A DNA stretch of 52,773 nt from an uncultured Nitrososphaeraceae archaeon (GTDB lineage Archaea > Thermoproteota > Nitrososphaeria > Nitrososphaerales > Nitrososphaeraceae): contig CAWGVG010000042.1 of the NCBI GenBank assembly GCA_963825865.1, forward strand, positions 1-52,773, in the 5' to 3' direction. Shown here piece by piece: positions 11,196 to 49,905 of the stretch. Both the position numbers and the translations under genes were made by a program. Each line of letters starts with the position of its first letter. The first letter of the stretch is position 1. The notes under the pieces are model-generated. The model was not told the DNA's origin and searched no databases. It saw only the letters and a program-made list of their open reading frames with translations.

Positions 11196-12738
11196 TTGGA
11201 ACTTCGTGATTCTTCCAGCATAGAGGAAATTGCAGAAATTTTAGATGGAATTGTTACTACTAATGGTAAAAAGGGTCTAGATTACTTCCGGGAAGGCAAA
11301 TACCAAGAGGCTGCGGTTGAATATGACACTATAGCACGAGCTTATAACGATGCTTATAATAGAGCCATTCAGGTAATGACTGAGTCTACTGCAGATTCTA
11401 CAAGAATAAAAGAAATTTTTCGTAAGGGCAGAAAGTTTTGGGAGGAGAGTGCACAGGTATGCCGAAAAGAGGATTTGCTGCGTAAAACGAATGAGCTAAA
11501 AAATGAAGCCTATAAGCTTCAGCTAGGTGGTCTTTACGAGGAGTCGATAAAATTGTTTAAAGAGGCTCTGGAATTAAATGCTACGGACGACCCCGAGATT
11601 TGCATGTACCCTTGGAAATTCATATTTTCACCTATCAAAATATTATGAGGCCATAAAATGTTATGATAAGGCTTTACAGATTGATCCTAACAATGCACTA
11701 GCATGGTATTGGAAGGGATATTCCTTTTATGAGCTAGGAAATAATGAAGAAGCCATAAAATGTTATGATAAGGCTTTACAGATTGAGCCCATTTTTCTTA
11801 ACGCGTTAATAGCTAAGGCAAATTCCTTTTATGAGCTAGGAAATAATGAAGAAGCCATAAAATGTTATGATAAGGCTTTACAGATTGATCCTAACAATGC
11901 ACTAGCATGGCATTTGAAGGGATATTCCTTTTATGAGCTAGGAAATAATGAAGAAGCCATAAAATGTTATGATAAGGCTTTACAGATTGATCCTAATAAC
12001 GATGTAATATTGAATAACAAAGCATGGTCATTTGCTATGATCGGAAGAGGCTTAGAAGCACTACGTATTATTAAAAAAAGTATAGAAATAAATCCCAAGG
12101 TAAGTGATTATTTTGATACAATGGGTTTTGTTTATTATAAACTGGGAGAATATGAGGAATCCATAAAGCATTATAATAAAGCAACAGAGATTGATGCTAA
12201 TAATTACTTATTCTGGACTCACAAGGCTTCCTCATTCCAGAAATTAAATAGACATAAAGAGGCACAGGACTGTTTGAATAGGGCCGAGGTTTTAAAAATT
12301 GAAGCGAAAAAGCAAAAGAGTTTAAAGAGAGAACTTCTTCTTAATTCTCTCTTCACTGGAACTGAAACAGCTGTACAAGAGCCAGAAGAGACGCGGCAAG
12401 ATTTAATCGATCAGCTAAACGCACCAGACCAAATTAAAATAAAGCAAGATGTTCAAACTAGAGGAGATGGTTGGTATCACTGGTCGGTCTTTTTAGACGC
12501 CGGGGAAAGAGGAGATAGTATACTTGATCAAATAGAATCTGTCAAATATGATTTGCACCCAACCTTTCCTGACCCAGAACCGACAAAAGATAGAAACAAT
12601 AAGTTTATACTTAATGCGACCGGTTGGGGAGAATTTGAAATAAAGGCTAATATTACTCTTAAGGATGGAAGAACAATTACAAAATATCATTGGCTTGCTC
12701 TAAGGAATAATATGACAAGTAGTACGGTTTCTAGATAA
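11196..12738 (+). CDS. TPR-repeat protein with C-terminal prokaryotic YEATS (pYEATS) domain (about 513 aa after correcting one frameshift)
   Basis: TPR consensus EAIKCYDKALQIDP. C-terminal YHWSVFLD...IESVKYDLHPTFPDP...F.L.ATGWGEFEI is the YEATS signature. Removing one C in tacccttgga (about 11609) joins the two ORFs. AGGTGA Shine-Dalgarno-like site before the TTG. Confidence 0.85.
11650..11990 (+). repeat. 102-bp tandem TPR-coding repeats, near-identical at DNA level
   Basis: gccataaaatgttatgataaggctttacagattga at 11650, 11752, 11854 and 11956. Confidence 0.95.
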
Positions 12739-12912: not shown

Positions 12913-14397
12913 TTAATCAACTTCTTGGACTTTTTGATATAGTTGCTCGCTCACCTTTTTTCTAAAATCATCGAAATTTGATATAAGCGTATTAGTAATA
13001 CTAGTAATATCTTGACCTAGCCTTATTTTCCCATCTATACCTGCCACTACAGATACTGAAGCATTTTTAATCCCTTCTAGCTCCTCAATTAAAACTATGA
13101 TTTCAGGCCTCTTCCTTTGATAATTACCTTTCTCCTTAGTAGCATCTTTACTGAAATCTCTTAGATGCTGCACATTTTGTTTTATTCTTGGAACTGTTGA
13201 CCAATCTAGATCGGTATGATTGTCTATAAAATCTTTACATAACTTTTCTAATGGATTTAACTTATTACGTAGAATTCTTCCTTCCCCGTTACACGTGTAT
13301 ATTACTGGTGAAATAAACTCTGCCGTATTCCCGAATTTATAATAGTAGTAAAGCCTTTCTTGCGTACTGACAATAGCTTCCTCCGCGTCATAATCCTTAA
13401 TGAATTCTTCATAAAATTGAGTGGAGATATAAGGGCCAGCCTCATCATGGATCTTGAATTGCATTCCAATAACACAGGGAATATTTTTTGTTTCCATGAG
13501 CTGTCTAGCCAGACCATTAAAACCTCTTTCAACTCCACTTTCACAGGAGTTTAGCATAATTAGTGCCAAATGCTTAGTACGCTTGTATTCGATAAACATG
13601 CTGGCAAATTTCGAGTCGTCGACTGGAATTTCATGGCCCCTTTCATTACATAACAATATTGTTCCCTTCTTACTTTGATCATTAAAATCGCTGTGTCCTA
13701 TGTAATGTATTATATTATAATTATTGTTTTTTAATACTTCTAAGATCTTATCTAGTGTGGGTTTTCCTAGCTCTACTGTACCATTTGCAAGGGTCTTTCG
13801 TTCATCTTCTAATTCATTTGAAAGTATATGAACTTCTACTTTATCTAGTAGGTGTTTTTCTATTATGGTCCTGATTTGTTCCCTCTCAGGCCTAGCATAT
13901 TTCAGCTGCTTTTTTTTAGGTGTCGATGAAATTATCAGAATTCTTAACCTATCAGAAATATACTTTGCTCCAATATCTTCTGGTACACTTCCATGCTTCC
14001 GAACTATCCTAATTTTATTATTCGGACCGAGGAAAGATGTGCCATTGTGCAGCAATTCCCATGGAAGAGATTGTAAATATGGCTCATCAATATCCAAAAC
14101 AAGTCTTAAGTGGTCTTCAGCATGCGCAATGCTGTTGAAATGCGCTAAGAAATTAGCATAAATCTCTTTATCATTAAACAGAAGTTTGTACAAATACTTC
14201 CCAATTTTTGTGACGTGGGATATAGCATCTTTATTACTGTCTGTATTGGTAATAGAACGCTTAGCCTTGCTTAAGAGAGATCGGATTATTCTGGTATCAA
14301 TTAATATGTTTTGACCTGATATTTCCATGCGGCTATTAGTATACGCAGTAATTGTATTGCCTGCTCCCAACTTAATCTTGAATATTGTAGTGGCCAT
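12913..14397 (-). CDS. CHAT-domain (caspase-like) cysteine protease
   Basis: LQSLPWELL, LRILIISSTP, catalytic His in IIHYIGHS, catalytic Cys in LIMLNSCES, CVIGMQFKI, FYEEF. Intact 494 aa ORF. Confidence 0.93.
   Translation of the reverse strand: MATTIFKIKLGAGNTITAYTNSRMEISGQNILIDTRIIRSLLSKAKRSITNTDSNKDAISHVTKIGKYLYKLLFNDKEIYANFLAHFNSIAHAEDHLRLVLDIDEPYLQSLPWELLHNGTSFLGPNNKIRIVRKHGSVPEDIGAKYISDRLRILIISSTPKKKQLKYARPEREQIRTIIEKHLLDKVEVHILSNELEDERKTLANGTVELGKPTLDKILEVLKNNNYNIIHYIGHSDFNDQSKKGTILLCNERGHEIPVDDSKFASMFIEYKRTKHLALIMLNSCESGVERGFNGLARQLMETKNIPCVIGMQFKIHDEAGPYISTQFYEEFIKDYDAEEAIVSTQERLYYYYKFGNTAEFISPVIYTCNGEGRILRNKLNPLEKLCKDFIDNHTDLDWSTVPRIKQNVQHLRDFSKDATKEKGNYQRKRPEIIVLIEELEGIKNASVSVVAGIDGKIRLGQDITSITNTLISNFDDFRKKVSEQLYQKVQEVD
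12919..13250 (-). repeat. 332-bp perfect inverted repeat, copy 2 (CHAT residues 383-493)
   Basis: Same 111-aa peptide LEKLCKDF...QKVQEV in both ORFs; the CHAT ORF stops one residue after the repeat. Confidence 0.97.
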
Positions 14398-14561
14398 TAT
14401 AGCATCTTTTGATTACGTCAAATCAATATAGCACAAAGGTATTTAATAAGAATGCCTTTGTAATGGCAAGAAATTCAACAGGTACAATCCGGCGAAAAAT
14501 GAAATTAAAGCAGATAATCAATATGTTTGGTTATATCGATAGCCATGGAATTTATCAAAAT

Positions 14562-15296
14562 TTACACGAAGTCGCCATAGTCTACCGCACCATATCTTGC
14601 GGGCCTGCGAGCCTCTCCCCCCCTAAAATCTGCACTCCTCATAAATCGCTTTCTAATTCCCCTGGCCTTGAATAGCGGCGTAAGGTTTTGTGCAGCGATA
14701 ATTCTTGTTGCAATGTCTGATTCTTTAGCTATTTGAAAGTTTGCACCTATATTTACAAGGTCACGTGATGACAATGGCATATTTCCTTGAACTTGAAGAT
14801 CAATCTGCGCATTCTTTCCTCGAGAAATAAGAATAGTGGCCTTCTCTGCCAGTACTACTTCTGTGATGGCTACCATATTAGTGTCCCAAATGCCCGACTT
14901 ATAACGTGACAATACTTCTTGTTTCAGATAATTCTCATCCTTGATTTTTTCAGAGCTACATCCAGATAACTGGAACATTATAGCATTCTGTTTTTTGAAT
15001 TTAACGGTTAGCCCAGCATTTGCTTGCACAATATTCGAGCCAACTAATGGAGCTTGGCCCGCAGCCTTAACATCTATTGAAACGGCATTTGAAGAAGAGT
15101 AATCGAAGCCAGCTTTAACAGTACCTTTCGTCGTTTGAAAAGCAATTCCTAGTTCACGTAAAGTTGTCAGAGGTTGGTACTCAAAGTCTATAATTCTACC
15201 TACATCACCTGGGCTAACCCTCAATATTGGAAGCCACGTAGCACAATAGTTCGTTTCATCTTTAATTTCTTTGATATATTGTTTTCTGATACTCAT
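14562..15296 (-). CDS. Putative gasdermin-like pore-forming protein
   Basis: 244 aa. N-terminal Y-x-A-T-W-L-P...GDVG, amphipathic beta-hairpin segments (VSIDVKA, AGLTVKF, AQIDLQV), VAITEVV strand, LTPLF and a short Arg-rich tail. Sits directly upstream of a CHAT protease. Fold assignment is inference. Confidence 0.6.
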   Translation of the reverse strand: MSIRKQYIKEIKDETNYCATWLPILRVSPGDVGRIIDFEYQPLTTLRELGIAFQTTKGTVKAGFDYSSSNAVSIDVKAAGQAPLVGSNIVQANAGLTVKFKKQNAIMFQLSGCSSEKIKDENYLKQEVLSRYKSGIWDTNMVAITEVVLAEKATILISRGKNAQIDLQVQGNMPLSSRDLVNIGANFQIAKESDIATRIIAAQNLTPLFKARGIRKRFMRSADFRGGEARRPARYGAVDYGDFV

Positions 15297-15878: not shown

Positions 15879-16300
15879 CTATAGTTTCCATTGTACTCGG
15901 ATATAGTAATTAGCCTGTTTTGTATTCAACGCCTGGGTTGTATTTACTGCACGAACAAAGAATTCTGTTCTGTCTTGACCATTGTTATCCTTATATTCTA
16001 CATAGACAGGTCTTGGGCTTTTTTCGACCTGGATTTTAGCTACAGTCTTGTCATCATACTCAAGGCGTTCCAATCTTAAGAGCGACATTATTTCTGCTCC
16101 AATGTGTTTCCGAACAAGGTTAACTAAGTGCTGTGACCATCCATCCCAATCTTTCCTTTCTTTAAATAATTCGTAGTCACGTTCAATTCCTAGAACATTA
16201 CCCTTGTCATCTACTCCTATAATCAACTTTCCTCCATCAGTATTCATAAAAGCGGCTATCGTCTTAAGTATTGAAAGTGCGAGAATACTATCTTGACTTG
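15879..16300 (-). pseudogene. Schlafen/AlbA_2 domain protein, 5'-truncated
   Basis: LKTIAAFMNTDGGKLIIGVDDKGNVLGIERD motif; the frame extends upstream of the called ATG without a start. Confidence 0.85.
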
Positions 16301-32308: not shown

Positions 32309-32597
32309 TCCAAAACTAACCGCTTATTTTAGTACAGAAAATAATAATAATATATATATTCAACAGGATATATTAGTTTTTTTAGTTTTATAGTTTGGTA
32401 TAAGCCAATCATAATTAAGCAAAATCCTAAACGTCAATATGAAAGTGCAGATCAATATAGCATATGACATCAGAATTAAGGAATAAGTGGATGAGTATAG
32501 AATGAAACCATTATACACTATATTAATTGTTGACAGCATTATTACTATCATTATTTAATGCCCTGCAATACTATGATTATGATGTGAACTGTGTATC

Positions 32598-33566
32598 ATG
32601 CCTGAAGAAATAATATCAGTTACCCCAAAGCTCATCCGAGAGATTTTACCTCCACGTCTAGTATACTCGAAAAAAGGAGACAACGGCATAGTCCTTGTCA
32701 TTGGCGGAAGTGGAATCTATCACGGTGCACCATTGCTTAGCACCTTAGCTGCTTTGAGATCGGGAGTTGATCTTGTTTATACAGCAGTTCCAAAGTCAAA
32801 TGTTGCACCTCTGAGATCTTTCTCCCCTAATGTCATAGCCTTGCCTTTTCCTAATGACAGATTTACCAGGGGATCTGCTAAGCAGTTGCTAAAAATGCTC
32901 CCAAAGAAACCAGATGTTGTTGCTATAGGAATGGGTATGGCTATAGAAAAGCCAGCATCTTTGGTATATATGGTAAAAGAATTAAAAAACATGGGAACAA
33001 AGTTACTGTTAGATGCTTCTGCTCTTATACCAGAAATTCTTGATCATATATCTGGAACTGATACAATTGTCACTCCACACTTTGGAGAGTACAAAAGACT
33101 ATTTCAAAAGGAGAAGAATTATGGTGATGAGATAATGGATCAACAACAACAACTACAATACAGGAACAAGCATCAAATGCATACAACTTGGCAAAAAAGT
33201 ATGGCATCACAATAATTCTCAAAGGATATAATAATATTATTTGTAATGGTAGCCATCCAGAGAAGCATCATGAGCAAGGAGGAGAAACCTTTAGCAGTGA
33301 TTAAGAGGACTACGCCTGCAATGACGGTAGGTGGTTGTGGCGATGTCCTATCTGGTGTAGTAGCAGGATTGCTTACAAAGATGCAAGATTCTTTTTCTGC
33401 ATCAATTGCAGGTGTTTATCTTTGTGGAATAGCAGGAAGTTTAGCATATAAAAGAGTAGGATTGCACATGGTTGCAACTGATTTGATAGAAGAATTACCT
33501 AATGCTATGAAAACATTTGACAAAATCAATTCTAAACCGCAACCTTTTTCTAAAGTGAGAGAATGA
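32598..33566 (+). CDS. nnrD: ADP/ATP-dependent NAD(P)HX dehydratase, split by frameshift(s) near 33150-33250
   Basis: KGDNGIVLVIGGS..YHGAP, LLLDASAL, TPHFGE and GGCGDVLSG motifs. Confidence 0.88.
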
Positions 33567-33768
33567 GATAGGTATAATAATAAAATCAGCTAAGAAAATT
33601 TTCAGTTTTTCTTAATAATATCCACGCAATTAGTCTTTGGCATTATCCTTTGAGAAGTATTATGAAACGCCGTACTACAATACAATCTCCAGTCAACATA
33701 ATAGAATTATACAGCTAGCTGAAGACACTATTTAACATACCATCATCATTAATTAGTTGTGCCGCCAT

Positions 33769-35900
33769 TTATGAGATAACGATTCTTGCATCAACTACTT
33801 TACATCCCTTTCCTTGCTCGAAAACTATTAGTGGATTGATTTCTATCTCTTGTATTTCGGAAAAATCTGTAACAAGTTGTGACATACGTTGTAGGCATTC
33901 AACTATGGATTCTATATCTGATGGTTCCTCTCCTCTTGCTCCTAAAAGGATCTTGTTGACTTTTGTTGATTCTATCATATGGCGTGCACCCAATTCCTTT
34001 ATTGGTGCAAGTCTGAAAGAAACATCTCTAAAGATTTCCACATATATTCCTCCTAATCCAAACATAAGCAAAGGGCCAAACTGATGGTCACGTTTCATTC
34101 CTATGATGACTTCCTTGCCGTTTCTTATGAACTCCTGAATGTTAATTCCTACTATACTTGCATCACCTTTTGCTTGTCTAACATTCCGCATTATTCTTTG
34201 AAATGCATTCCTTACTTCCTGAGCATTTTTCAAATTTAGTTCAACACCTCCGACATCAACCTTGTGCACAATATCTGGAGAAGATATTTTAGTATAACAG
34301 GATAGCCAATCTCTTCAGATAAACTTACGCAGTCATCTTCATTGGTCGCTATCTTAGATTTAGGGATCTGAAATCCATAAGATTTTACTACTTGCACTGC
34401 TTCAGCTTCATGTACATAATTTCTTCCTTTTTCCTTGACTTTAGCAAATAATGTTCTAACCTCATCTTTGGAGGCGTCAAATTGTTTGATTCCTGTCCTT
34501 GGTCTTGCTATCCAAGATCTGTATTCTTGCATAGCAACAATAGCTCTTGCTGAAGATTCAGGAAAAGAGGACCGTGGTATTTTATTTTCATCAAGTTTCG
34601 CTAAGGCATTTTCAATTCCAGAAATTGCCATCATACAAGACAAAATTGTTTTTTCTTTGAATTCCTTGTCTATCTTTATCGTGATTTCAGCCAAGGATTC
34701 CATATTAAGCATCATCTGCGGAGTAGATATAACAATGCATGAACCCACGTTCGGATCTCCAATACAGCTCTGAGTGCATTTTCATATCTCGTATGATCTG
34801 CATCGCCAATTATGTCAATTGGATTGATTAGTGATGCTGTTTTTGGAAGCATTTTTCTAAGTTCATTGATAGTCTTTTCGCTTAATTTGCTCAGCTTCAA
34901 ATTATATTTTTCTGCCGCATCTGCAACTATTATGGCAGGACCTCCTGCATTTGAAACTACTACAGTACCAACACCTCTTGGAATTGGCTGGTACACAAAC
35001 GCTATTGCATAGTCAAATAACTCTTCTAAAGTTTCAACCCTTAGGACCCCGCTCTGCGCAAAAATCGCTTTATATGTTTCTTGAGAGCCTGCTAACGCAC
35101 CTGTATGTGATGCGATAGATTTAGCTCCAATAGTGGATTCTCCTACCTTCAGTGCAAGTATAGGTTTTCTTTTCTCTATTTCTCCCGTTACATAAGAAGA
35201 AATTTCTATAAATTTTCTACCATCGACCAGATCTTCAATGTACATTAAAATGACTTCCGTAGAATCATCATTTGCAAGCATAGTAAGGAGATCATTTTCG
35301 TTCAGATCTGCCTTGTTTCCTAAACTAATCACTTTTGAGAATCCCATATTCCTCATTTTTGCATATTCGAGCATAGCGACACAAATTGCGCCACTCTGAG
35401 AAACAAGTGCTATGTTACCAGACTTTGGCATTCCTTTGGTAAAACTTGCATTTAACGAAACATTTGGATCTGTATTGATAAATCCAATGCAGTTTGGTCC
35501 TATTAATCTCATCCATGATCTTTGGCAATTCTTTTTATCTGATCTTCGAGTATCTTGCCTTGTTCACCTGTTTCTTTGAATCCACTGAAATTATGACTGC
35601 GGCCTTTACCCCTTTCTTACCACAGTCTTCCGTTACTTGAGGCACAATACTGCTTGGAGTAATTATTACTGCAAGATCGATAGGGTAGCCTATATCAAGT
35701 ATATTTTTGTAACACTTTAAACCGATTATTGTATCACTTGAAGGATTAACAGGATATAATTTGCCCGTAAAACCTCCAGACAAGATATTAGCTATAACAG
35801 CATTGCCAACGCTGCCTTCTCTATTTGATGCACCTATAATCGCCACACTTGTAGGAGAGAATATATTTTCAACAGTCATAGATAGATAAGACAATCCCAT
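33769..35900 (-). CDS. ADP-forming acyl-CoA synthetase (fused alpha-beta), split into four ORFs by three frameshifts
   Basis: SPTSVAIIGAS, IGPNCIG, SQSGA, ASHTGALAGS (phospho-His), NPIDIIGDA, GPLLMFGLGGIYVE, EINPL and VDARI motifs. Confidence 0.9.
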
Positions 35901-36736
35901 AGTATAAATTAGTTAGATAAAACTAGGATTTGAGTTCCAAATTGTTATCTTTAAATTTTGCTCTTTTTCCGTCTATGCTCAAGATTTTAAGGCTCAACTT
36001 TATACACATGCGGAAGTTTCTGATAAAAGATGGCAAGAAAATCGATAGAGGATCTGGATAGAAATAAAGATACTGAACCATTAATGGATCTTATGTATAG
36101 CATTGACACAAGCCACAAGGGCTATTACATGCCGGGATAATATCTCAAATACCTAACTGATATTCCGTATATACCTAGAAAAGACAGGGAAAAGAATAAG
36201 TTCAATCTGTTTTAATTTAATTAATATGATGGACTACTCCATAGTCTAACATACAACACTTATAATAATCTTCGAATATCTTGACATGTTCCCGAATATA
36301 ACCATGCTTGTTTATCTCTACGATGATTTTTACACATAACAAACCAGTATCCTCTATCTCTGTATCTATTTTCTTCTTGTACACATTCACAAAACCTTTT
36401 ATTGATTTGAATAACTTCTACTGTTGCCAATCTAATAATCGGCTAGAATAATGTAGAAGGCTAGCTATAGCTTTTTGCATTATTCTATTCTATTTATGAT
36501 TCATTCCTTCTAGCTGTATAGAATAGAGGCAAGTAAATATTATATTTTTGCTTCTTTACTTTTTACTTTTAGCAAATGGGACAAAATCTTTTTCTGAAAT
36601 TCGAATACTGCCGTATTCTCCTCCTGACGTGTTTATTCCTCCATTCTGATTAACTAATCGGTCCTTGATAATTTGGCTATACCTACTTAATAGGGTAGTT
36701 AAAAATATTCAAAGGATAATTATTTTTGCTTACTTA

Positions 36737-36949
36737 TTAAGTATCATTTGAAAATATTTTTGGAAAGATCAACTGAAGTATCGTAATTACTACAGGAAAT
36801 ATAGCCGTCAGAATTATTATAGCATCTTTTATTTTACCTCTTAGTTGTTTTTTCACCAAAAATTGCTCCTTATCAGGAAGTTTTATAATATTAGCTAGGC
36901 AACTAATTGGTTTTAATTTATCATTATCTTTGAAAAATGCAGTTATCAA
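36737..36949 (-). pseudogene. C-terminal fragment paralogous to the membrane protein at 39008-39826
   Basis: NDKLKPI...EQFL.K..L..KIK...TM helix shared between the two. Confidence 0.65.
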
Positions 36950-37927
36950 ATTTTCAGTTCACGTATAGAATAATTGATCCTATAAGAGAGATTGTGTTGC
37001 ATATTGCATATAACATCTACATAGATATGAGAAGTAGAATCCACCATTAACAAATCATAACTTTATTTTAGAAATTGATTTAACAAATTCCATGATATGT
37101 GTATGCACACCATATAACTGGCGTTAAATGGTATCAAGATCTCAAGAATAGACTCTCAACAACTTCAAGTAATTGAATATCTTAAGGAAAAATTTAATCT
37201 AACACTATCAAACAGCCCATTACAGCAGAATCTATTTGAAAAATTCACTGAAGAAAAGGGAATACATTGTGCATTTTCTCCATTTGGAACTCTAGACTGG
37301 ATGAGGTGTAATTCTTCTTCTATTGCAAAAGATTATGAATCTAGGACACAGAATATTGTTGAGAATATTCAAAAGCAGATTTCCGAATTAGTTAATAAGG
37401 TAGACATACAGATTAACCAATTAAATAATACAATAAGTAGTACTAATAGCGAAATAGAACATCTTCGATATTTATCACATTTTGGCATCAACGCTTCAAA
37501 CTTGAGAAGTTTCTTTATTGATTCTAAAAACAATCTAATAGCGATGCATAAATATCTAAATGGTATTGACGAGTCATTAAATAATTTTTCGTTTTATCAG
37601 TTTCAAGGTTATTCCAAAGTCCTCCTTCAACAAGAATTCGAACGTAAATTAGAAGCAGCAATAAACACATTACAAATAGCAGAACAATCCGTTTCCGTTG
37701 GGTAACGTGATCACTCCGTATCGTGTAATTATCCCTCTCCGCTTCTATCTTTTCTATAAGTTCTATTCCTTTTCCCCTTGGTTAGAGTTTTAGACAAGTA
37801 ATAGATAGCATATGGCCATAGATAAGAACAATAACAGAAGACTCTGCTTCTCACTACTGTAGATCTTTCGTTTAAAAGTAATATCTCACAATAAAAATCA
37901 TAAATAGGCTAAAATAAAAGACCAATA

Positions 37928-38218
37928 ATGATAGACACTTCCCAATCACAAAGGGGAGGGGAAGCAGGATGGCGAGGATTAGATTACCAGAAAAAATTTA
38001 TCGCATATCTATCGCTTGAGATGTTATTACAAAATCAATCAATAAAGAAAATTACATGCGAGTATTTAGATGACATAGAAGTAGAAGAACAGTCAAAACT
38101 ATTATACTATCAGGTAAAATCGACTACTAATACCATTTTACCCAAATCTGATATCATTGACAGCTTTAAGTTATTTTCGTCAATCGAATCGAGGAATGAG
38201 AAATCGAGATACAACTGA
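37928..38218 (+). pseudogene. Cap4/DUF4297-like dsDNA nuclease domain, 3'-truncated
   Basis: GG..GWRGLDYQ, EYLDDIEV and YYQVKS (PD-(D/E)xK variant QxK). Confidence 0.75.
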
Positions 38219-38460
38219 TGACCAACAGTAGGTTCAGGATCACCCGCTATTCCCTTGCCATTTTCAAACATATCATAGCACTCGTTGCAAACCTTCTTGG
38301 TACGTTTCCCCTTGTGGTGACACTTTCCATCGGGGAAGTCCTTAGCTGATGGACATTCACCAAATCCATGAAAGGCATGTTTCAACACTATCTCTAACGG
38401 CTTACCCTTCCTTATGGAATTATGACACCCTGGCATCTGGCATTTATTATAACGTGTCAT
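38110..38460 (-). CDS. Small Cys/His-rich putative zinc-binding protein
   Basis: CQMPGC, C..C and CNEC motifs; start overlaps the methyltransferase stop (ATGA coupling). The 3' part overlaps the nuclease remnant. Confidence 0.5.
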   Translation of the reverse strand: MTRYNKCQMPGCHNSIRKGKPLEIVLKHAFHGFGECPSAKDFPDGKCHHKGKRTKKVCNECYDMFENGKGIAGDPEPTVGHQLYLDFSFLDSIDENNLKLSMISDLGKMVLVVDFT

Positions 38461-38939
38461 CTTCTTGCTTCAACTCCCCCTCTAAAAATACACACTAACG
38501 ACGGAGCTGAAGATTTTGTACCTTCAAACCGTAGTCTACCCTTTAAAAAACGATGTTCGATATTTGGATCTTGATTTTTAATATTATTATTATTATTATT
38601 ATTGCCATTATTATTATTATAGATATACGCATGAAACCATCGAGTATCCGTACGTGAAGGTAACAACATCACAATTGTCACGCCGTATTTCACCGAGTCT
38701 AAATATCCTTTCCTAACCCATTCCCCAATTTTTAAACCGTATGGTGGATTACAGAATGTTGCATTCTTATTCCAAGGTTTTGACAAAGCATCGTCTTCCT
38801 CTGTGTAAAAATATTTAGTTCCTAGTGGATTGTCTTTGGTAGTTGCCGCGTCTAATTGGAAGTGGAATTCTGCATCTAGTTCTTCATAGAGGCGCTTTGG
38901 TGTCCTATAGTCTTTTGAACCACTGGAGAGTCTAAGCAT
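38457..38939 (-). CDS. Phage-type DNA N6-adenine methyltransferase with poly-Asn insert
   Basis: TP..LY..LD.EF.F.LDAA, FCNPPY, LLPSRTDTRWFH and FLKGRLRF motifs. Confidence 0.9.
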   Translation of the reverse strand: MLRLSSGSKDYRTPKRLYEELDAEFHFQLDAATTKDNPLGTKYFYTEEDDALSKPWNKNATFCNPPYGLKIGEWVRKGYLDSVKYGVTIVMLLPSRTDTRWFHAYIYNNNNGNNNNNNNIKNQDPNIEHRFLKGRLRFEGTKSSAPSLVCIFRGGVEARR

Positions 38940-39007
38940 CCATATAATAAAAAATGATCTATCTAAATATTGATAAGTCTGCGAATGAATATTAGAGGTT
39001 AAAATAA

Positions 39008-39826
39008 TTGGCTTCAGCTATTATCATTCCGTTATTTATATTAATTATTCTGCCATCATTTTATTATATTAGTGTCCCCTTTTTTATTAATTATCTCCAA
39101 ATAGAAGTAAATTATACGGCTGGCTTTTATTCTGAACTCGTTATAATTCTGATCATTTTAATTTACAGTCTGCTACCAGCTACTTTGTCAGCTAAAAAGC
39201 ATTTTAAAATAAGAACCTTTGAAAAGTACGTTATCGAATTTGGCTTTTTAAAAAAGTCGATGTATATTGGTATTCCTTTACTTATTGCTATATATACATA
39301 TGTAGGAGTATATTCTGCGCCATATAATCCAGAAAACCCAGACTACTCTTATACTTTATTGGGGGGACTACTCTTAATTGTAGGCAGTACATTTTTAAGG
39401 ATTATTTCAAATATTTCACAAACCAATTTTAGATTTTATTATGCAAGAGGGTGTTTTCACCTTATGTCAAAAGAGACAGATGAAACCAATAAAATGAATT
39501 ATTTTATTATGGCATTAAATTCATACAATAAATATCTAAAAAGGAATCTAAAGCTTCATATCAGCAATATTAATAATATCTATTCTAAAATCATTTCCGA
39601 TTCCATTGTCGACAAATACGAATTAATAAAATCAATATCTACTGCCTTTGAAAGTAATGATAAATTAAAACCGATCAAATACATATCAGCATTTTTGGAT
39701 GCTAAAAATACAGAACAATTTTTGACTAAAGAACCATTAGGAGATAAAATTAAAGAATGGGGAACCTTCTTGGCAGTAATAATTCCGATAATGATTTCAA
39801 TTATTCAGTTGCTTAAAGCATCTTAA
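39008..39826 (+). CDS. Multi-pass membrane protein of unknown function
   Basis: Four N-terminal hydrophobic helices, a soluble helical domain and a C-terminal TM helix. Confidence 0.7.
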   Translation: MASAIIIPLFILIILPSFYYISVPFFINYLQIEVNYTAGFYSELVIILIILIYSLLPATLSAKKHFKIRTFEKYVIEFGFLKKSMYIGIPLLIAIYTYVGVYSAPYNPENPDYSYTLLGGLLLIVGSTFLRIISNISQTNFRFYYARGCFHLMSKETDETNKMNYFIMALNSYNKYLKRNLKLHISNINNIYSKIISDSIVDKYELIKSISTAFESNDKLKPIKYISAFLDAKNTEQFLTKEPLGDKIKEWGTFLAVIIPIMISIIQLLKAS

Positions 39827-40562
39827 GATAGATTCGAATATATAGACTATAATGTTTATTGAATCACTATTTCTCTGCAGTGCTAAAAGGCTGGATTGAT
39901 GATAGATAGAACGTCCAAAAATGCAATCTAAGCATAGATGGTTTCTGGATTTGTGCTCACTATGTATTGTTATTTTCATTTGGTGGATTCGTTCGGTATA
40001 TCGTATTTCCTTACTTGTTTAATACCATATTCCTACATAGAATATATTATCTCGTTCAAATATTTTTAACCCTTCAGGTTTAAGGAATATTTCTCAGTAA
40101 TTCATTCAAGCAACAAACCTATACTCCTTGGCATATTGATGAAGTTAAATGGCAGCCCGCCATGTAGGATATCTATTCTGACAAGAATGTAGGTATAGCC
40201 ATATAGTCAGCTAGAAGAGGTTAGTGAAAGTTTCGTAAACAACAAAGAAGATGTAATAGGGATTGCCACAGTCGAATTATATAGATTATAAAAAAGATTT
40301 GTCAGCGCTTTTAGTATATTTGATGCATTTAAATGTAAAAGATTACCATTTCAACATGAGGTAGAATTAAGAACTTTCCACCTATTGCAACCTCTTATAG
40401 AAGATTGTTTCTTCTTCTATTTTATCTCTATAGCAAATGCATAAAGCTACATCCGTTCTGTATAATGAAATATATTAGAGAGAAAAATAGAAGCATATTC
40501 CCGGCGTGAAAATCCGAGATAGCAGATTTCCCTTCATAAAACAGGCCCAGATAAACATGAAA

Positions 40563-41013
40563 ATGAGTCATAAAGATAAGGTTGAATGGAGAAGAGATCA
40601 AGTTCAGGCACTCGACTAAAGGACATCACAGCCATCGAGAAATATATCAAGTATTTTACGGATACCTAAATCAACCATTAAGTAGAGACATATCTATCTA
40701 AACGAGAATGCAAAGGATAGTATCAGGAAATACATTGACCAAAATCTGCCAGAAGAATACGAGAAGTGTCTGGTTGGAGTAATGGCTATTTGAAGAAGAG
40801 CGTGGAATAGTTCTCAAACGACAGAAGATAACAAGGAAAAGATTCAAGCACTATCGTTGGCAAAGGAATGCTATTTGATGAAATGGATTTACTTAGTAAT
40901 GCAACTGTAGTAAAAGATGCTATGAAGTTTGTATCAGAACATAAAAATAAGAAAGGAGTGAAAGAAAAAGATAGTTCTTCAGTAGTAGCAGTAGGCCATT
41001 GCATCTGTATATG
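40563..41013 (+). pseudogene. Degenerate paralog of the HTH protein at 52179
   Basis: EWRR...IRKYIDQNLPEEYEKCLVG...KIQALSLAKEC...DLLSNATVV matches 52179-52679. Confidence 0.85.
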
Positions 41014-41232
41014 AATATCGTTCCTGTCAACTACTCTACAAAACATAGATTGATGTTAGGCAATGTGCGCAAATGGATTGATAAAGGACACGTTGCAATA
41101 GATCCTGATTTATTTCCAGAACTGTTAACAAATCGAGAATTGCAACAAGTGATGAAAGATGTCACTTGATAAAACTGAGTATTCAATGGACTTGTTAGAT
41201 AGCCTTAGACTTTCGATGGAATATATCGTTTA
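41014..41232 (+). pseudogene. Possible terminase large subunit C-terminal remnant
   Basis: MLGNVRKWIDKGHVAIDPDLFPELL...LDKTEYSMDLLDSLRL resembles the RNase H-like terminase nuclease end. Confidence 0.45.
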
Positions 41233-41925
41233 TTGATATTGAAAGTATTATTAAATTGGATTGAATTGGAAGAAACATCCAAACAAACAAAGATCAAGGA
41301 CTTCGAACAATATCAAAATAATAAGAATAAGGATAAGATAGTAGATTACTTTATGAAAGTAAAAGTAAATTCGTCGATCCCTATCATAGTTGATAAAACA
41401 GTCAGTAATACTTTCCATAACATATCATCACATAGTTTAGGATTGAACCCGCTTACGTAATGGGCTCAAGCAGATATGAATCCTTTCGTGGAATTTCTTA
41501 GGACCATCTATCAAAGTATAGTTGTCTTATAAACTGCTTATTCTCGTCATAACAATACAGCTAACAAGTTGTATCAACAAATACATTGGGTGTTGTAGTA
41601 TTGTTTCATTATTCACGGTCACATGGACAGTTAAGTATCAAATTATTCATCTACAAATATGGTCATACTCATGATAAGATGGAAGGTGTTTTGTAGACCT
41701 AAAATAAGATACTTAACTTATTCTAATTCCTGTTTTACCATCTTGCCAATCTTTAGAATATGCGGTGATTAATGCATGCTCCCAACTTCCCACATAACAA
41801 GGGTTCTTAAATCCATTTATATAGCATAATATGTCCAATCATACAAGGGTAATGTCGTAATATGGCTCACTCCAATCGTCCCCTGACCTCTCGTGAGTTA
41901 AAATCATGCTCCACCTAACCATTTC

Positions 41926-42678
41926 ATGAATAGAAGGAAAGGAATAAAGGAACTCTCAGGCATTATCGAAAGCATAATTGAAAGACAAAGTGGAAAATTC
42001 GAGGCGCATAATAAAGACAATGAAGAAGAAAGGAGAACATGGTTTTTAGATACCAATGCATGTGAACTCTATTGTGATAAGAAATTCCTGCTTAGAATAA
42101 GAAAAGAGAAGGAATCAGGAATCTACGATGTCACATTGAAATGTAGACATCCGGACAGATATGTCTGTGCTTTATATAATATTTCGAGACCAGAAGACGC
42201 CGAACCGAAATTCGAGAATCACTTCAATACCAAATTCGAGAAGGATATAATGACTGACAAGATGACTGATGGAAGGATTACTTCAATCAGCAAGTTTTCT
42301 TTGTCAGCCTCACTAGAGGGTAAACAAATACCAGACTTTAAGACAATCAAAAATCTCGTATCTATCTTTCCTAATCTTGAATTAGGAGGAATTGATTCTA
42401 ATGAACCACTCACGATAGTAAATAATTTCAAAGCTATTGAAATTTCATCAAAGATTGGAACGTTCACATTTTCAAACGACGAGACGGACGTCGAGGCGGA
42501 GCTTAACCTATGGTATTCGCCATCTCAGGAAGAGCCCCGTATTATAGAATTCACATTTAAGTATAAAGCAACGAAGCAAGACAAAGACAAAGACAAAGAT
42601 AAGGAAATGTTAGAAAAATATCCAAAAAAACTGGTCTTAGGAGCGAGCAAATTTTACGAGTCATTGCAAAAACAATGA
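41926..42678 (+). CDS. CYTH/triphosphate-tunnel-like protein (ends probably frameshifted)
   Basis: WFLDT, LLRIR, DVTLKCR and IIEFTFK strands typical of the CYTH superfamily. Confidence 0.55.
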   Translation: MNRRKGIKELSGIIESIIERQSGKFEAHNKDNEEERRTWFLDTNACELYCDKKFLLRIRKEKESGIYDVTLKCRHPDRYVCALYNISRPEDAEPKFENHFNTKFEKDIMTDKMTDGRITSISKFSLSASLEGKQIPDFKTIKNLVSIFPNLELGGIDSNEPLTIVNNFKAIEISSKIGTFTFSNDETDVEAELNLWYSPSQEEPRIIEFTFKYKATKQDKDKDKDKEMLEKYPKKLVLGASKFYESLQKQ

Positions 42679-43989
42679 TATTGTAGATCTGGACACTACA
42701 CGAACAAAAATACTTTGTATATAAAAAAAGTGTAAGTCGTAATTGCGCTATTCACTTCATTCATTACATAATTTTTACTTCCGAAGAACGTGAATTAATA
42801 GATTTCTATTCATTACTGAAGTTCTATAAATCAAACTTATTGTTGTCTTCTCTCAAGTTCTTGCAGTCTTGCAGTTATAGCCACAAGTTAATCTGACAAG
42901 TGTGCTATTGCATAATCTTTCATTTCATGACGTCGTGTGGTATCTGCACATTATTTTTATAATTGATTGACTTTTTGAAATGTCAAACAAGGTTCATTCT
43001 TACAAAATATCTTTGCTCCCTCAATCTGTGTCGAGAATCACCGGAACTAGATATTACGAACTCAAACGGAATAGACCACTGGCTGGCGGTTGGTAAGTTC
43101 TTCAATGATATAATGTTCTTCTTATGACATCGTTACCTCTGGTACCACTAGTAAGTAAAGTGAAATTATTAGTAATAATATAAGAAGTAAAGCAACACAG
43201 ACAATGACAGTAATAGAGTAGAATAAAGAGAATTAGAAAAAAGTCGGAAAACAATAGACTATAAACAAGGGGAAAAAGAATTACTTGTTTTTTCTATTTC
43301 TATCTGTATATCAGTATATGAATACCAATTGCATCATGATACTTTTTTGTTTTAAGAAGATTTTGATTCCACTTCGTGATTGTAATACCTAGAAGAAAGT
43401 TTTGAAATGCTGTAAACAAAAAAGATATAGCTTATGATAGTATAATATAAACAACAAGAAGAAAAATGAATAGCTCCTCGTCATCATACCCCTCATCAAA
43501 AGTGAACAAAACTTACAGTAAAGATCCTGCTGATCTTATTACAATTAATGAAAAAGTAAATCTAACAAAGGATCAACACAAAGTTTTGAATATTATTTCT
43601 GACACATATCAAATATCTATTTCAGATATAATATGTGTGGCCATCACAGTTTCTACGAGCATGCAACCGATATCTCTCCAAGCTACGCATAGTTTTCAAC
43701 TGCAAAGTCGTGGATTTAAGCTGAACAGGCATTATCCGAAGTGATCCTTATTTTTATATCAACATAGGCCAATGAACATATAAAAAAAGTCATAAATAAA
43801 CTTTTGATATTGGCTGTTATAATTTCAAATGTCAACAGCAAATTATCTCTTTTGAAGTCATTTTTTATAAACTTCGCTTAACCGCTATATTTGGTGTAAT
43901 TACTTTTATCAATTATGGATATTCACTTCTCTTATCAGATCTTGGACTTCTATTGGTTTTTTAATAAAACATCTAACATCCAACTCCCG

Positions 43990-44350
43990 AAAGTTATTCT
44001 TTAGAATATTATAATATTCTTCGAAAGCTTCTAATAAAGCAGACTTTTTGGTAGCTTGTTACCTTGTTTTCTGTTTCATTTCTCTGTATAACTCAAACCC
44101 ATTCATTTTTGGCATTTTAATATCAAGAAGTATTAAGATCATAGCAATAATTAGCATTCATTAATGGTATATGTATACATGTTGGAATTATTAGTAATGA
44201 TATTTTTGTCTTTGAAATGAGATAATGCTTGCCACAGGATCGCTGAAAATATCATCAACCAATTGAAAATCCATTTCTTTCTAAGCCAATTTGGAATGCG
44301 CTATAAAACACTCTCTTAGGCTGCATCGTCTACAAGCAATAGTTTATAAG
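43990..44350 (-). pseudogene. Response regulator receiver remnant
   Basis: LLVDD and DIKMPKMNGFELYREMK on the minus strand, with stops and frameshifts. Confidence 0.7.
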
Positions 44351-44729
44351 ATGACCCATGTGCATTAATGTGCTTATGCATATCCTAATTATCGTTGTTC
44401 CTTTGATAACTGTCATGTGATATGAATGTTTATTGACTACATATTGAAAATTAGTCTTTGTATCAATAGCCTATATCAGATGGAAAACCGCCTATACTCA
44501 GCAATCTTTCTATTAGGAAAGTGTTCTTATCTGTTATATCTAAAACCGCATCAAAATAGATATTTGTACCATGACATTCCGATATCTTGTTTTGATTAGA
44601 AAAATCATACTGATAGGACCACCATGAAAAATAGTTTACCATTGCTGTTTTGCTGCCTGAATAAATCTCTGTTTGATTCCAGATTTTGTGTATTGCCATT
44701 AATAGCGAAGAATTGATCACGTATTTCAC

Positions 44730-45135
44730 TCAGACACATAGATCGTGTTTGTTTTTGGATTAACGGTCATGTTGGTGAATTGATTTATTCGTACCTCGTC
44801 TGGTGCCATGACATCCTTTATATTCTTTAGACTACTGCCATCTATAACAGAAACAGTATTGGGAGCCGGCATTTGCTACGTAGATTTTATTGGTATTTGG
44901 ATTGACTGCTATGTCAGTCGGATGAATACCCACCTTTGTTGCATTCCCAATAACACTATCTGTTTTGCCATCTATAACAGAAACAGTATTGGAGCCGGCA
45001 TTTGCTACGTAGATCTTGTTTGTTTGATTATTAAGTGCTATATGTCCATTTACTCCTTTTACGTTCTTCACAACTTCATTTTTATCAGCATCTATAACAG
45101 ACAAAGTATTAGACTTGGCATTTGCTACGTAAATC
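44730..45135 (-). pseudogene. YVTN beta-propeller repeat protein fragment
   Basis: Repeated KIYVANAGSNTVSVIDG units, visible as DNA repeats near 44837, 44967 and 45089. Confidence 0.85.
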
Positions 45136-45984
45136 TTTGCGTAGTTGGATTTACGAGGACTATGTATTGTGGATCATCGCCTACTTGGATATACTTTAAA
45201 GGAGAAGATCAGTGCCAGGAATGTAGGATTTATTTCGTATGCACTCCCGCCATACCTTAAATCTAATGTGTTTAGAAACAAGTTATGCGATTGTGGATCA
45301 ACCAGTTATGTCGGCCTAACGTTCTGTGTTGTAGCATAAGAGTCGGTATATAAATTTAGACTCTTAATTTCCTTTGATGGGAGGCGACAACGCTTAACTT
45401 AACAGCACCTATAGACCTATCGAAAAAATAAAGATACAGAGTGGAGTGAAATTCAATAAATATGCGAAGATAAAGTTATGACCATAAACCAATTGGAACT
45501 ATCGGTACGGCAGAGGAAGTGTAGAAAGAAAATGATAGTAAAAGGAAAAGCATACGAAGCAAATATAGTTTTGAATAAAATCGAACTAGCAAGGTGTTTT
45601 GCACTCAGAAAATATGAAATCAAAGAAGCGATAGCAGACTTACGGCGTGATAAGGTAACATTTACCCACCCAATACATCGCCCTTTGAGTATTCTATGTT
45701 AACTTCTGTCTTCAAGTCTTATCCACAATTACCCCAGAAGTTTTCAGTTCCTGTCTTCAATTTGATTTATAGCCACACTGACAGCAAAGCTTATCGACGG
45801 GACAACGACCGGTTTTTATTTCTCCTTGTATTCAAGTTCCACATACATGGCCTTTGTAGAGGTCTCTTTATGATGACATGTTTATAAGAATAATCATAAA
45901 GTTTTAAGGGTAGAATTTAAAAATACTATAAAGTACTACGTCGGTAAATTCAGGAATCTAAGATAATGAGAGCTCTCATGGACA

Positions 45985-46817
45985 ATGATGAAACGCAACA
46001 ATAATGATCCATTAATTAGAACCTTTATTGACAACTATAACCTTCATTTATTGTCGGTACCTAGAGCTAACGCATCGATTGGTGATCTTTACAGGTATGA
46101 CGGTAGGCAGGTATCTTCTCCTGGAAAAATTAGTTATTTCCTTGAACCTCCTTTGAGATTTCTCATATATTTACTGGAGAAAGAATGGCAGATATATCGG
46201 GAACTATATCTAATAGGGTAGAGACAAATTTTGGACTAGAATTTCTTGAAGGTTTCCTGATGGCCATAGGAGTTGAAGGCATTATTAATAAGGTTCGCAA
46301 TAGTTTTGCGTCAAAAAATACACATAGCTTGAAATTTCGTTTTGCAGATATTACACGCGATTATACAGATCTATACTGGCTCAGCGAGGAGATCTCGGCA
46401 TCCCGATTTAAGAAAGATAGTGCTATGTATGGTGAAGATTACCGTTATTTCCTTGTAGCTAAGATGGTACGAAGTCCATCAATAAACATCATTGCAGAGG
46501 ATGAACAGATGAGAGGAGTTGACGTTGATGTAAAAGCTATACAACTAGCAGGCGTATCAACAGGTGTTTCAGTAGAAAAAGCAGGAAAAGGAGAAGTTAC
46601 CTTTAAAGGAAAACAAAGTCTAGCATTTGGGGTCGAGTTGTATGATCTCTTATACGATATTCAAGAAAATGGTTTTAGGTTCAATACCATTACAGACCCA
46701 GTTAAACTAAGAGATAAAGGTACAGAAATTTTCACACGTACGAATATTAAACCTGCATTTATTGGAAATGCACGGGAAAAATGTAATGCATTCCTTTCAC
46801 TTGTTGAAAATCAATAA
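45985..46817 (+). CDS. Bacterial-type gasdermin (bGSDM), about 277 aa, one frameshift near 46152
   Basis: Colinear bGSDM motifs: DP......YNL.....PR, ADISG.......FGLEFLEGFL..IG, KFRFADI..D, YFLV....RS, VTFKGKQSLAFG. Adding one T to cctttgag joins the two ORFs (LEPP-FEISHIFTGERMAD). Confidence 0.85.
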
Positions 46818-47253
46818 CTATCATGTTCGCTGAGAGGTCTTTTGACAAAGAAATGAACACACTATTCTGATGATGAGGATGGTGACCTAGAATAGACTCA
46901 AATATCGAGGTCATTGAAGCCAGATAGCAGTTTTTAGTAGAAAAAAGGAGAATATGTAGCAATTGCCGCAGACGAGAACGAAACTAGCAAATGTTAAAAC
47001 TTTGACTCACAAAGTATTACCTCAGCGTAGATATGCAACATCATAAAAATCTGAGCATCAAGGAGTGCAACAAATGTACTGAACCTGAGTAGATGAACCC
47101 CTTAACTACAAGGAATTAAATCCCACCCAGTCCACTGAATCCTCAGTTCAAATCCCTACACTGAAAACAAGAATAGGACATTTTAACAATAAAACAGCTG
47201 ACAACCAAATCTTTAAACCACAGTCGTGTCTTCCTTCCACTATAAACTATGGA

Positions 47254-47500
47254 ATGAGACTTATATCATAGAAAAGAGAGGCTTGCTTATTGGATTAACA
47301 GAATAGATACGGATCTTAATGAACCTGACAAAACTGATGTTTTAAAATTCATAAGGTACATGCAGGATAAAGAGAGTAGCATATTATGGATAATTAGATG
47401 CATAACTGCTCTTCTGTTGATGAGGAGACAGCTTGGAAAAAGCTTCAAAGATGCCAATAAAGAAAGAGCCATGCCAATATTTTTGGTTAAATCCACTGCC
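47254..47500 (+). pseudogene. Possible N-terminal fragment of an archaeal integrase
   Basis: LYHRKERL...DVLKFIRYMQ...S...IIRCI..L......LGKSFKDANKE resembles the SAM-like N-domain of XerA/SNJ2-type integrases; no catalytic domain. Confidence 0.4.
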
Positions 47501-47789
47501 GGCATAGAGCACTTTCTACATCTCATGCTACGATTGATCCAAATCTAACTGGCTTCGTGATTTTTTTATGATCAAATACATCTAAAATCCTTTTTTTATC
47601 TGTTGTTAAATTATGACTTTACTGTCCTTTTTTGTATTATAGATGTCCATCCATTTCTACCTATGCAATAATTTATGTACAGCATTCATATTTTGCTATC
47701 ATATTTCACCATTGGCTCTAGATTCATCGGCTGTTTTTATCTTTTATCATGTGACTACAATAGATATAAAAAAACAGCCAATTGGTTCT

Positions 47790-48861
47790 ATTATTTCTCT
47801 TGACTTATCTCCTTTGCAACAGCATCTATATTGTAATCAAGCATGTTTGGTAGCGTGGCTACAGGAATATAATCAGGATATAGGCTTTGCAATTCGCTTT
47901 TTATTTTTGTTTTACCTTCTTCAGTAATGTTTGCTGATCTCTCTGTCTCCTCCCTACTTTTGCTCTGCCGATTGCATTTGTTGTTCAACTAATGACCTGA
48001 ATGTATTGAGATAATTCAATTGTTCATCTAGTAAAGTCTTGGCTGATCCAGATTGACCATGTCCTGGAAACAGAATTTTTGCGTCTGAGTAATTCTGCCT
48101 TAAATATTCTATCTGTTTAATCCATTCTAAATATGTGACGGCTTTCTGGACTAAGCGCAAGGGATGCATATGATTATTGACCATGTCGCCGGTAAACATT
48201 ATCTTCTGCGATGGAAGATAAATTAGCATCATATCACCAGCTTCTCCTGTCCCAAAATCTTCAAAATGATAAGTTATTCCATCGATAGTGATATTTTCAC
48301 CCGACTTTACAATCTTATTAGGTAATACTAATTGATCAGAATACTCGTTACCGTGAAAGCTCTTTGATAAGGCTATGTATCCTCCAGTATCGTTTTTCAT
48401 AATATTAAATGCCGATTGGGTCGAGTATACTGGAACATTGATCGTTCCATTTAGCAAGACTTCTGTTCCATCCTATATGGTCTGGATGAGGATGTGTAAT
48501 AATAACACCTAAAATAGGCTTGTTTATTTTTTTGACCTCATCTAGAAGTTTTTTGGCTTCAGACAATTTGCGTTGCGTATCAACTACGACTACTCCATTT
48601 GTGCTTTCTATAATCCATGAGTTGACTGGAGCCAGCCCTGAAGAAGTAAAATTATGAATTTGAGGAAAAAAGTTGCATTGGTGCTTGTTTTGTCATATGC
48701 TGATGCATTAATTCTCTGTTGAGCAAATACATATTGTTGCGGGGATGTTTGACCTTTAAGATTAATCGTAGATCCTGCCAAGAACAGACTTGAGGCTGAA
48801 CTGATAGTACTAAGAGCATTCTAAGTTGACTTTTCTGAGAGTTTGGCTTTATCAGAGTCAT
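47790..48861 (-). CDS. Metallo-beta-lactamase fold hydrolase, frameshifted
   Basis: VNSWII...VVVDTQ, IITHPHPDH, MFTGDMV and FPGHG motifs. Confidence 0.85.
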
Positions 48862-49244
48862 AATAATTAATACATTTTATTATTATAAAAAGACGAAAGT
48901 AAGGCCATTTTATTATGATCTCTGGTATCTATGAGATGTCAAACCTATAATTGGATTGACCATAAAGACTATTTTTTCATCTGTCTCTTTACATCATAAA
49001 AATTTGTCCTAATTTCTGAGTCTGGTGGTCTTAACTTGTCCTTACGCTCCACAGCAATCAGGTGTATTTAATATCAAAGCCAGTACATGGAATAATACTT
49101 CTCAGATTATTATTTAGAAATAAAAGTTTAAGAATAAACAAAACTATGAGGTACCCAGACAGGAAATTATCTTTGTTTTATTATAGGCTAAATTAAAACA
49201 TTATGGTAAATTCTTTTATACAGATTCTCTAGAATAACCAATCA

Positions 49245-49905
49245 TTGCTAGCATCACAAGATAAATCTCCACTATGGCTCAGAGTTCTACAAGTTGTTTT
49301 GGGGGTAATTTCAATTGCGCTCTCAGTAGCCGTATTAGCATCTCCAGCATCTGCTATTGCGACAGTTATTGTATTGGTTTCAATAGTTCTCTTCATAGTT
49401 GGAATTGAAAGAATTGCAAGCGGAATATCCTCAGCATCCACTAAAATATCATCTAGCATTGTAAATATTGGACTAGGAGTACTAGTAATAATAATATCTT
49501 CTGTAGCTATGGCATATCCACTACACTCTGCAGCGTTTTTGATAATATTGGGAGCAATCGCTTTATTGTTTGGTGGTATTGCAAGGTTAATGCATGGGTT
49601 TGTAGATAGCAACAACGCAGGTTGGTCAAGAAGCCGCCCTTATTTTCGTGGGAATATTAAGCATTGTTATATCTCTCATAGTGTTAGCACATCCTGTTGG
49701 TATTGGCATTCCTCTTTTGGCCTTTATGATATCAATAGCTCTTATAATTAACGGAATAGAGATGATAGGCTTTGGGATAGTGGGCAGGCGAAGATTCAGT
49801 TCAAAAGCAACTGAAGAAAGCTGTTATAATAGTCTTGCAGGAGGACAATTAATACTAGAATTTCAAATAAGGCCACACAGATCCCAGGCACTGCAACTTT
49901 CTTGA
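49245..49905 (+). CDS. HdeD/DUF308-type membrane protein, frameshift near 49640
   Basis: Repeated LGVISIALS / GILSIVIS...G...I helical hairpins. Confidence 0.75.

Follow-up and report, generated by a model that had tools for sequence, protein, structure and literature searches.

The window analysed here is one whole contig of 52,773 nucleotides (52.8 kb) from a 4.98-Mb genome (G000; 62 contigs, 81.8% completeness) of a soil archaeon, an ammonia oxidiser in the Nitrososphaeraceae. Pfam finds a PriX domain in the window, and one homolog of the gasdermin described below is named Nitrososphaeraceae; a search of the window for tRNAs returns none. Work on gasdermin-type cell suicide has covered bacteria, fungi, and animals. 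Two plus-strand open reading frames (ORFs) in different frames, 45985..46221 (78 aa) and 46185..46817 (210 aa), are confirmed as two halves of one gasdermin of the bacterial gasdermin (bGSDM) family, and the frame of the second half is already open from 46146, before the ORF start at 46185. The gene comprises the following features.

45966..45984, plus strand: possible true start region, from the family profile A2, the DNA alignment with the metagenome locus L002, and the N-termini of homologs.
45985..46152, plus strand: gasdermin piece 1, the N-terminal 56 codons from MMKRNNNDP to YFLEPP, matched by the PADLOC bGSDM profile.
46150..46152, plus strand: site of a single missing base, in the codon between Pro (46147-46149, CCT) and Phe (TTT), where the frame moves by -1.
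46152..46817, plus strand: gasdermin piece 2, running from FEIS across the pore-forming domain and ending at the stop codon 46815-46817, matched by PADLOC and NCBIfam.
46710..46712, plus strand: codon of an invariant Arg (R243 of homolog P0002) at the end of the last core strand, found in 14 of 14 homologs.
46713..46814, plus strand: the C-terminal 34 residues, a variable linker followed by a conserved PAFIG...AFLSL tail, with P256 and F268 conserved.

The two pieces fit together as one protein. Aligned with 14 full-length homologs, from which the A2 profile was built, they abut without loss of a residue: the window reads YFLEPP and then FEIS (FEISHI) where the homologs read YFLEPxFEIS. In DNA alignment with L002 and L003, the window is short by exactly one base within 46150-46152, a one-column gap that falls where an earlier note on this DNA had placed the break (46150-46155). 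Piece 1 shares 40 of its 56 residues with P0002 (71%), and piece 2 shares 178 of 221 aligned residues (80%). All eight conserved positions that fall in piece 1 are kept, as are 31 of the 32 columns invariant among the homologs, the sole exception being V to M, and neither piece contains an in-frame stop. The C-terminal tail that the same note had described (KLRDKG...AFIG...FLSL) is present and in frame, and it differs from the tails of L002, L017, and L025 by whole-codon indels only.

A second irregularity lies just upstream of piece 1. Behind an ATG at 45966-45968 the window is one base longer than L002, the extra base lying within about 45969-45972, and this puts that ATG out of frame with the conserved N-terminal extension. 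In the main frame, a TGA at 45967-45969 precedes the extension itself, which reads ELSWT in the window and MKLSWT in homologs. A start of the MK(L/F)SWT type occurs in 10 of the 14 homologs, and the match to the A2 profile begins at 45973 (profile position 3).

Membership of the bGSDM family is secure by profile, by sequence match to structures in the PDB, and by the predicted fold of a stand-in homolog. Both pieces match one PADLOC profile (bGSDM, PDLC02986) collinearly, with residues 7-56 of piece 1 on profile positions 3-51 (E 5.4e-4) and residues 10-180 of piece 2 on positions 59-226 of 257 (E 7.1e-30). On piece 2 alone the NCBIfam model prok_gasdermin (NF051890) reaches 99 bits (E 3e-28), one short of its cut-off of 100. 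A local Pfam scan of both pieces finds no gasdermin family, only a chance match to Cytochrom_D1 (E 0.08). A protein search with piece 2 matches 21 proteins, each of which lists PF26164.1; ten of them are full-length (275-282 aa), with 63-80% identity. Searched against PDB sequences, the A2 profile matches 8SL0 (2.7e-20), 7N51 (3.8e-20), and 7N50 (5.7e-11). The fold was assessed on P0002 with the A2 alignment, as a stand-in for the window's joined protein. The resulting AF2 model (pLDDT 82.7) resembles 7N50 (E 1.7e-15, TM 0.67/0.76) and 7N51 (E 3.0e-15, rmsd 2.8 over 237 columns), both inactive-state bGSDM crystal structures, and eukaryotic gasdermins stand lower in the list. The protein is thus a canonical bGSDM, as had been claimed, and belongs to a known family.

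Orthocaspases are caspase-like proteases specific for Arg or Lys, and the invariant Arg at 46710-46712 is proposed as a candidate P1 residue for an activating cleavage by a protease of that specificity. Behind this Arg come G, D, S, or T, a variable linker, and PAFIG...AF(L/I), and 19 more distant homologs carry an RG, RD, or RS motif before their own variable linker. By analogy with studied bGSDMs, the 34 residues beyond the Arg form a putative autoinhibitory peptide. The CHAT protease of Runella cuts after Leu (Johnson et al., 2021, 10.1101/2021.06.07.447441).

The N-terminus departs from the better-known members of the family. An N-terminal Cys is palmitoylated in Bradyrhizobium and conserved in most bGSDMs, and it is not required for membership, according to the available text of Johnson et al. 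(2021, 10.1101/2021.06.07.447441). At the place of the M-C-K-R of more distant homologs the window has M-M-K-R, with Met for Cys, so the residue is indeed absent, as had been noted. Counted over translations, the Cys occurs in none of the 14 close homologs and in 7 of 19 more distant ones (L004, L005, L006, L015, L018, L024, and L032), one of which comes from an Anaerolineales bacterium. The position is occupied by Leu in the close clade and by Trp or Phe in other low-GC loci.

The break between the two pieces has to be judged against the condition of the assembly. Two essential genes were examined for breaks and both are split: rpoB (contig C44, 24810-26589) is cut into four pieces separated by stops, and aEF-2 (contig C15, 87706-89854) into two. 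A single ORF of at least 1000 aa is present in the whole 5-Mb genome. Within the window, Pfam traces an ADP-forming acyl-CoA synthetase across four ORFs and an NAD(P)HX dehydratase across two, along with split transposases. Because essential genes are broken in the same way, the frameshift in the gasdermin is most likely a sequencing error.

Contigs from soil metagenomes support this view for the neighbouring genes. Logan contigs from four runs in three studies were placed on 32500-49500. They carry single-base insertions at 34286, 34762, 35512, 35584, and 35897 and deletions at 33141 and 33278, and these seven positions are the break points of the acyl-CoA synthetase (33769-35900) and NAD(P)HX dehydratase (32598-33566) genes. 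Applied in silico, the indels turn the synthetase fragments of 283, 181, 181, and 125 aa into one ORF of 710-715 aa and the dehydratase fragments of 210 and 116 aa into one of 326 aa. The best-matching run (X1) may be the source sample of the window and so is not fully independent; several of the same indels also appear in runs from the two other studies. Over seven contig pieces with 0-2 substitutions each (3,975 nt in total) there are 11 gap letters, or about 2.8 per kb. At this rate about two breaks are expected in 833 nt, and one or two are seen, one inside the gene and one just upstream, so that the frameshift needs no biological explanation. The X1 contig piece over the gasdermin spans 46152-46761; it starts at the frameshift and leaves 46147-46157 unbridged. 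With no contig across those positions, the case for an error at this site is drawn from the assembly's general behaviour, and on that footing the one-base gap at 46150-46152 is very probably an assembly artefact. The earlier note had described the gene as hidden by a frameshift; taken as a biological feature or the mark of a pseudogene, that description is not supported, given the split rpoB and aEF-2 and the short-read contigs that mend the neighbouring genes. Coverage by ORFs of at least 100 aa was also tried as a control (63% of the genome, 56% of the window, and 63-75% of four relatives' loci) and was set aside as non-discriminating, those loci being defence islands.

A real, young pseudogene is an unlikely reading but the most serious competitor. 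On this reading the protease partner has been lost, the surrounding repeat-rich DNA is decaying, and a true 1-base deletion has left neither piece functional: piece 1 has only 56 native residues, and translation from the internal start at 46185 would miss about 67 N-terminal core residues. Relatives do carry broken copies. The closest metagenome locus (L002; Ga0126383_10091778, 610-2467; 73% identity) has at least two frame breaks, and a match turns up in 8 of 200 other same-family genomes, of which G141 has the gene in two pieces and G179 and G051 have several stops. The flanks of the window gene hold neither a protease nor a remnant of one, and they are gene-poor, a mosaic of short repeats that recur on many contigs, which is a setting for the decay of an unused gene. 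At the assembly's indel rate alone, however, a gene this long would be expected to have about two breaks, and 31 of 32 invariant residues survive here with no in-frame stop, whereas the decayed copies in G179 and G051 are interrupted several times. A joining of the two frames at CCU CCU UUG, by programmed -1 ribosomal frameshifting or by slippage in transcription, is hardly credible. The frames do overlap over a short T run, and the join costs no residue, but the site is not a slippery heptamer of the form X XXY YYZ, all 14 full-length homologs read the homologous codons straight through, and the same type of break occurs in essential genes of the assembly; recoding was rejected on the missing heptamer and the uninterrupted homologs.

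The gasdermin of L002 adjoins a divergently oriented TIR_2-domain gene, not a protease. In the window, Pfam on 69 six-frame segments covering 42.0-52.8 kb finds no CHAT or C14 protease; it returns a fragment of a YNCE/NHL propeller (44835-45173, minus strand), a gene of the metallo-beta-lactamase fold, and DUF308. A tblastn search from 42 kb to the contig end with 35 neighbour proteins from relatives, taken to E 5, finds no protease remnant, only the beta-propeller fragment at E 1e-3 and noise up to E 5. The absence of an adjacent protease, claimed before, therefore extends to remnants over 42.0-52.8 kb. The window gasdermin is a stand-alone, or orphan, gene whose activator, if there is one, is encoded elsewhere. 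It lacks the neighbouring protease that belongs to the bGSDM-protease defence system (the gasdermin system of PADLOC and DefenseFinder). The genome has a single CHAT match, at 12913-14397 in this window, and two C14 fragments on other contigs.

Relatives of the gasdermin commonly sit beside a protease. Pfam was run on 44 hand-picked ORFs (the longest non-overlapping of 190 listed) in 19 of 32 related loci, the other 13 being short or partial. A protease adjoins the gasdermin in 12 of the 19: a CHAT in eight (L004, L005, L006, L013, L015, L023, L024, and L032) and a Peptidase_C14 in four (L008, L010, L014, and L033). Among same-family genomes, a CHAT lies beside the gasdermin in G141 and G101 and a C14 in G047, while G051 retains only a remnant.

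Two further arrangements were observed at related loci. In the high-quality genome G155 (L046; G155:C6, 5083-9464), a 1149-aa KAP-NTPase, NB-ARC, and TPR protein of NLR-like architecture lies directly upstream of the gasdermin. No recognisable protease domain is found at this locus, and a protease-free activation route, or one through a novel protease, is possible there. Separately, in seven related loci the gene immediately downstream of the gasdermin is a conserved one that matches no Pfam family and encodes about 126 aa; its positions are as follows.

L003, 1457-1858
L004, 1578-1958
L006, 1498-1875
L015, 2021-2395
L018, 1155-1541
L024, 6824-7204
L032, 8823-9200

These seven genes are mutually homologous (37-77% identity), six of the seven partner gasdermins bear the N-terminal Cys, and the gene may be a third component of CHAT-gasdermin operons. 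A tblastn search does not find it in the window's genome.

The upstream flank of the window gasdermin holds the following feature.

44466..45173, minus strand: YNCE/NHL-type beta-propeller fragments with three direct repeats (D1) of about 125 nt (tblastn E down to 1e-16; Pfam).

In L010, L012, and L014, TPR-propeller proteins are encoded upstream of the gasdermin, and the fragments resemble the C-terminal propeller of those proteins. Repeats of 40-500 nt with 75-98% identity to sequences on many contigs occupy 41629-41792, 43046-43112, 43414-43626, 44011-44148, 47077-47141, and 49003-49500. The element at 44011-44148 has about 20 copies, high contig depth in metagenomes, and a MITE-like look. 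A paralog of 41809-42850 lies on contig C62. A joint from 41566 to 47088 in two runs was considered as a strain lacking a 5.5-kb gasdermin island and discarded; its sides are only 27-32 nt long, and the paralogous stretch on C62 joins similar sequences. The description of the flanks as remnants partly reflects the same indel errors that split the genes; the flanks are, all the same, a mosaic of short genome-wide repeats. Fragments of defence type also occur on the contig, namely an N-terminal piece resembling Cap4 nuclease and HamA-LmuA (37928-38218), a Dam-type methyltransferase (38457-38939), and a Schlafen AlbA_2 piece (15879-16247), and several split transposases accompany them. The contig looks like a variable defence island.

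A second candidate gasdermin lies far upstream, in its own gene cluster.

11578..12738, plus strand: protein with TPR and prokaryotic-YEATS domains, convergent.
12913..14397, minus strand: CHAT protease, 31.6 kb upstream of the gasdermin (Pfam CHAT 2.8e-20; single CHAT match in the genome).
14562..15296, minus strand: protein of 244 aa whose predicted fold is that of a gasdermin (AF2, Foldseek, VIA), encoded directly upstream of the CHAT.

The AF2 model of the 244-aa protein (pLDDT 78.7) was built on 10 homologs. All of its top Foldseek matches are gasdermins, the best being 8SL0 (E 2.7e-5), and the VIA-align Z scores are 10.0 against 8SL0 (rmsd 4.6 with 160 aligned) and 8.1 against the Runella gasdermin 7N52. 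The protein has no sequence similarity to the A2 profile (hhalign probability about 1%) and no Pfam or PADLOC family, and its own profile (A5) has no sequence match in the PDB. It resembles the window gasdermin in its predicted gasdermin fold, in length, and in ending with a short C-terminal element behind a linker modelled at low confidence; unlike the window gasdermin, it has its own protease next door, and the two share no sequence similarity. Its family is also rarer: of 200 other genomes, 2 hold it, whereas 8 hold the family of the window gasdermin. The homolog of the 244-aa protein in G043 lies between a TPR protein and a CHAT that Pfam recognises, a different CHAT, and tblastn with the window CHAT finds nothing in the two relatives' loci that hold this family. 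At the level of predicted fold, the models support the earlier claim of two distinct gasdermin types within 31 kb, and 11578-15296 looks like a complete second system composed of a predicted gasdermin-fold protein, a CHAT, and a TPR and YEATS protein.

The presence of that CHAT invites the reading that the window gasdermin is intact and activated in trans, one protease serving two pore-formers. This is a priori unlikely, and it is judged less probable than decay. The CHAT is unique in the genome, CHAT is the commonest neighbour of the gasdermin family (8 of 19 loci), its own neighbour has a predicted gasdermin fold, and both genes share a 52.8-kb contig with other fragments of defence type. 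Against this, the two gasdermins have no detectable sequence similarity and their linkers are unlike, the genes are 31 kb apart with nothing indicating co-regulation, and the protease of Runella cleaved only its own partner in the available text of Johnson et al. (2021, 10.1101/2021.06.07.447441). A bolder extension, slightly more doubtful again, would give the Nitrososphaeraceae of soil a Cys-less gasdermin clade of their own, with a bulky hydrophobic residue (Met, Leu, Phe, or Trp) in place of the palmitoylated Cys, and would have the stand-alone copy of this genome wired in trans to the CHAT of the second system, as a two-effector, pyroptosis-like network in an archaeon. If this were true, the Cys-less clade would have to form pores in the tetraether-lipid membranes of archaea.

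The preferred reading, to which we give a probability of roughly three in four, is that the region encodes one intact orphan bGSDM of about 277-283 aa, autoinhibited by its tail, activated by a protease, and forming pores against viruses, and that the splits are consensus indel errors. Its functional part is argued by analogy with studied bGSDMs. Both indels, the gap at 46150-46152 and the extra base upstream of 45973, would be consensus errors of an error-rich assembly, and since such errors are the most likely cause, the organism probably carries an intact gasdermin gene. By homology, the 34-residue C-terminal tail would fold back on the pore-forming domain and hold the protein inactive. A caspase-like protease would then cut the linker, where the break may fall just behind the invariant Arg (46710-46712), and the freed N-terminal domain would oligomerise into membrane pores, so that the infected cell dies in an abortive infection. 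Autoinhibition, cleavage, pore formation, and a defence role are accordingly putative properties of this protein, suggested by its relatives.

The main value of the locus is a warning about the assembly; it also offers a modest clue to gasdermins without the Cys in archaea that oxidise ammonia. A frameshift or a remnant in this assembly says little about biology, and calls of pseudogenes or remnants are suspect genome-wide; each split gene on the contig and in the genome is possibly intact. The window and the 8 of 200 other Nitrososphaeraceae genomes show that the gasdermin family is present in ammonia-oxidising archaea but patchy and often decayed. A search of the available literature found no paper on an archaeal gasdermin or on gasdermin with Thaumarchaeo*, with the proviso that supplementary tables could list archaeal cases, and a search for gasdermin with Nitrososphaer* found only a review of a Bacillus cereus toxin. 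In its available text, a survey preprint places gasdermin systems in fewer than 10 archaeal taxa, and a commentary, likewise in its available part, describes a gasdermin system found in bacteria and archaea. The locus is a starting point for the question of whether gasdermin pores work in archaeal membranes without a lipid anchor.

Set beside the bGSDMs of known structure from Vitiosangium (7N51, 8SL0, and 9A84), Bradyrhizobium (7N50), and Runella (7N52), the window gasdermin is similar in size, at about 280 aa. Like them it ends in a short tail, putatively inhibitory, behind a linker, and its relatives adjoin CHAT or C14 caspase-like proteases, as most of the 50 bGSDMs counted below adjoin a protease. 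It differs in its host, an archaeon of the Nitrososphaeraceae, in the extra N-terminal extension of MKLSWT type carried by many members of its clade, and in having no adjacent protease; where the Bradyrhizobium protein has a palmitoylated N-terminal Cys, the window gasdermin has Met. In the available text of Johnson et al. (2021, 10.1101/2021.06.07.447441), 43 of 50 bGSDMs have an adjacent protease and 7 of 50 have none in a search of up to three genes away. The window gasdermin resembles those seven orphans in having no nearby protease gene, and it differs from them, as far as that text describes them, in that the only CHAT of its genome lies 31.6 kb off on the same contig.
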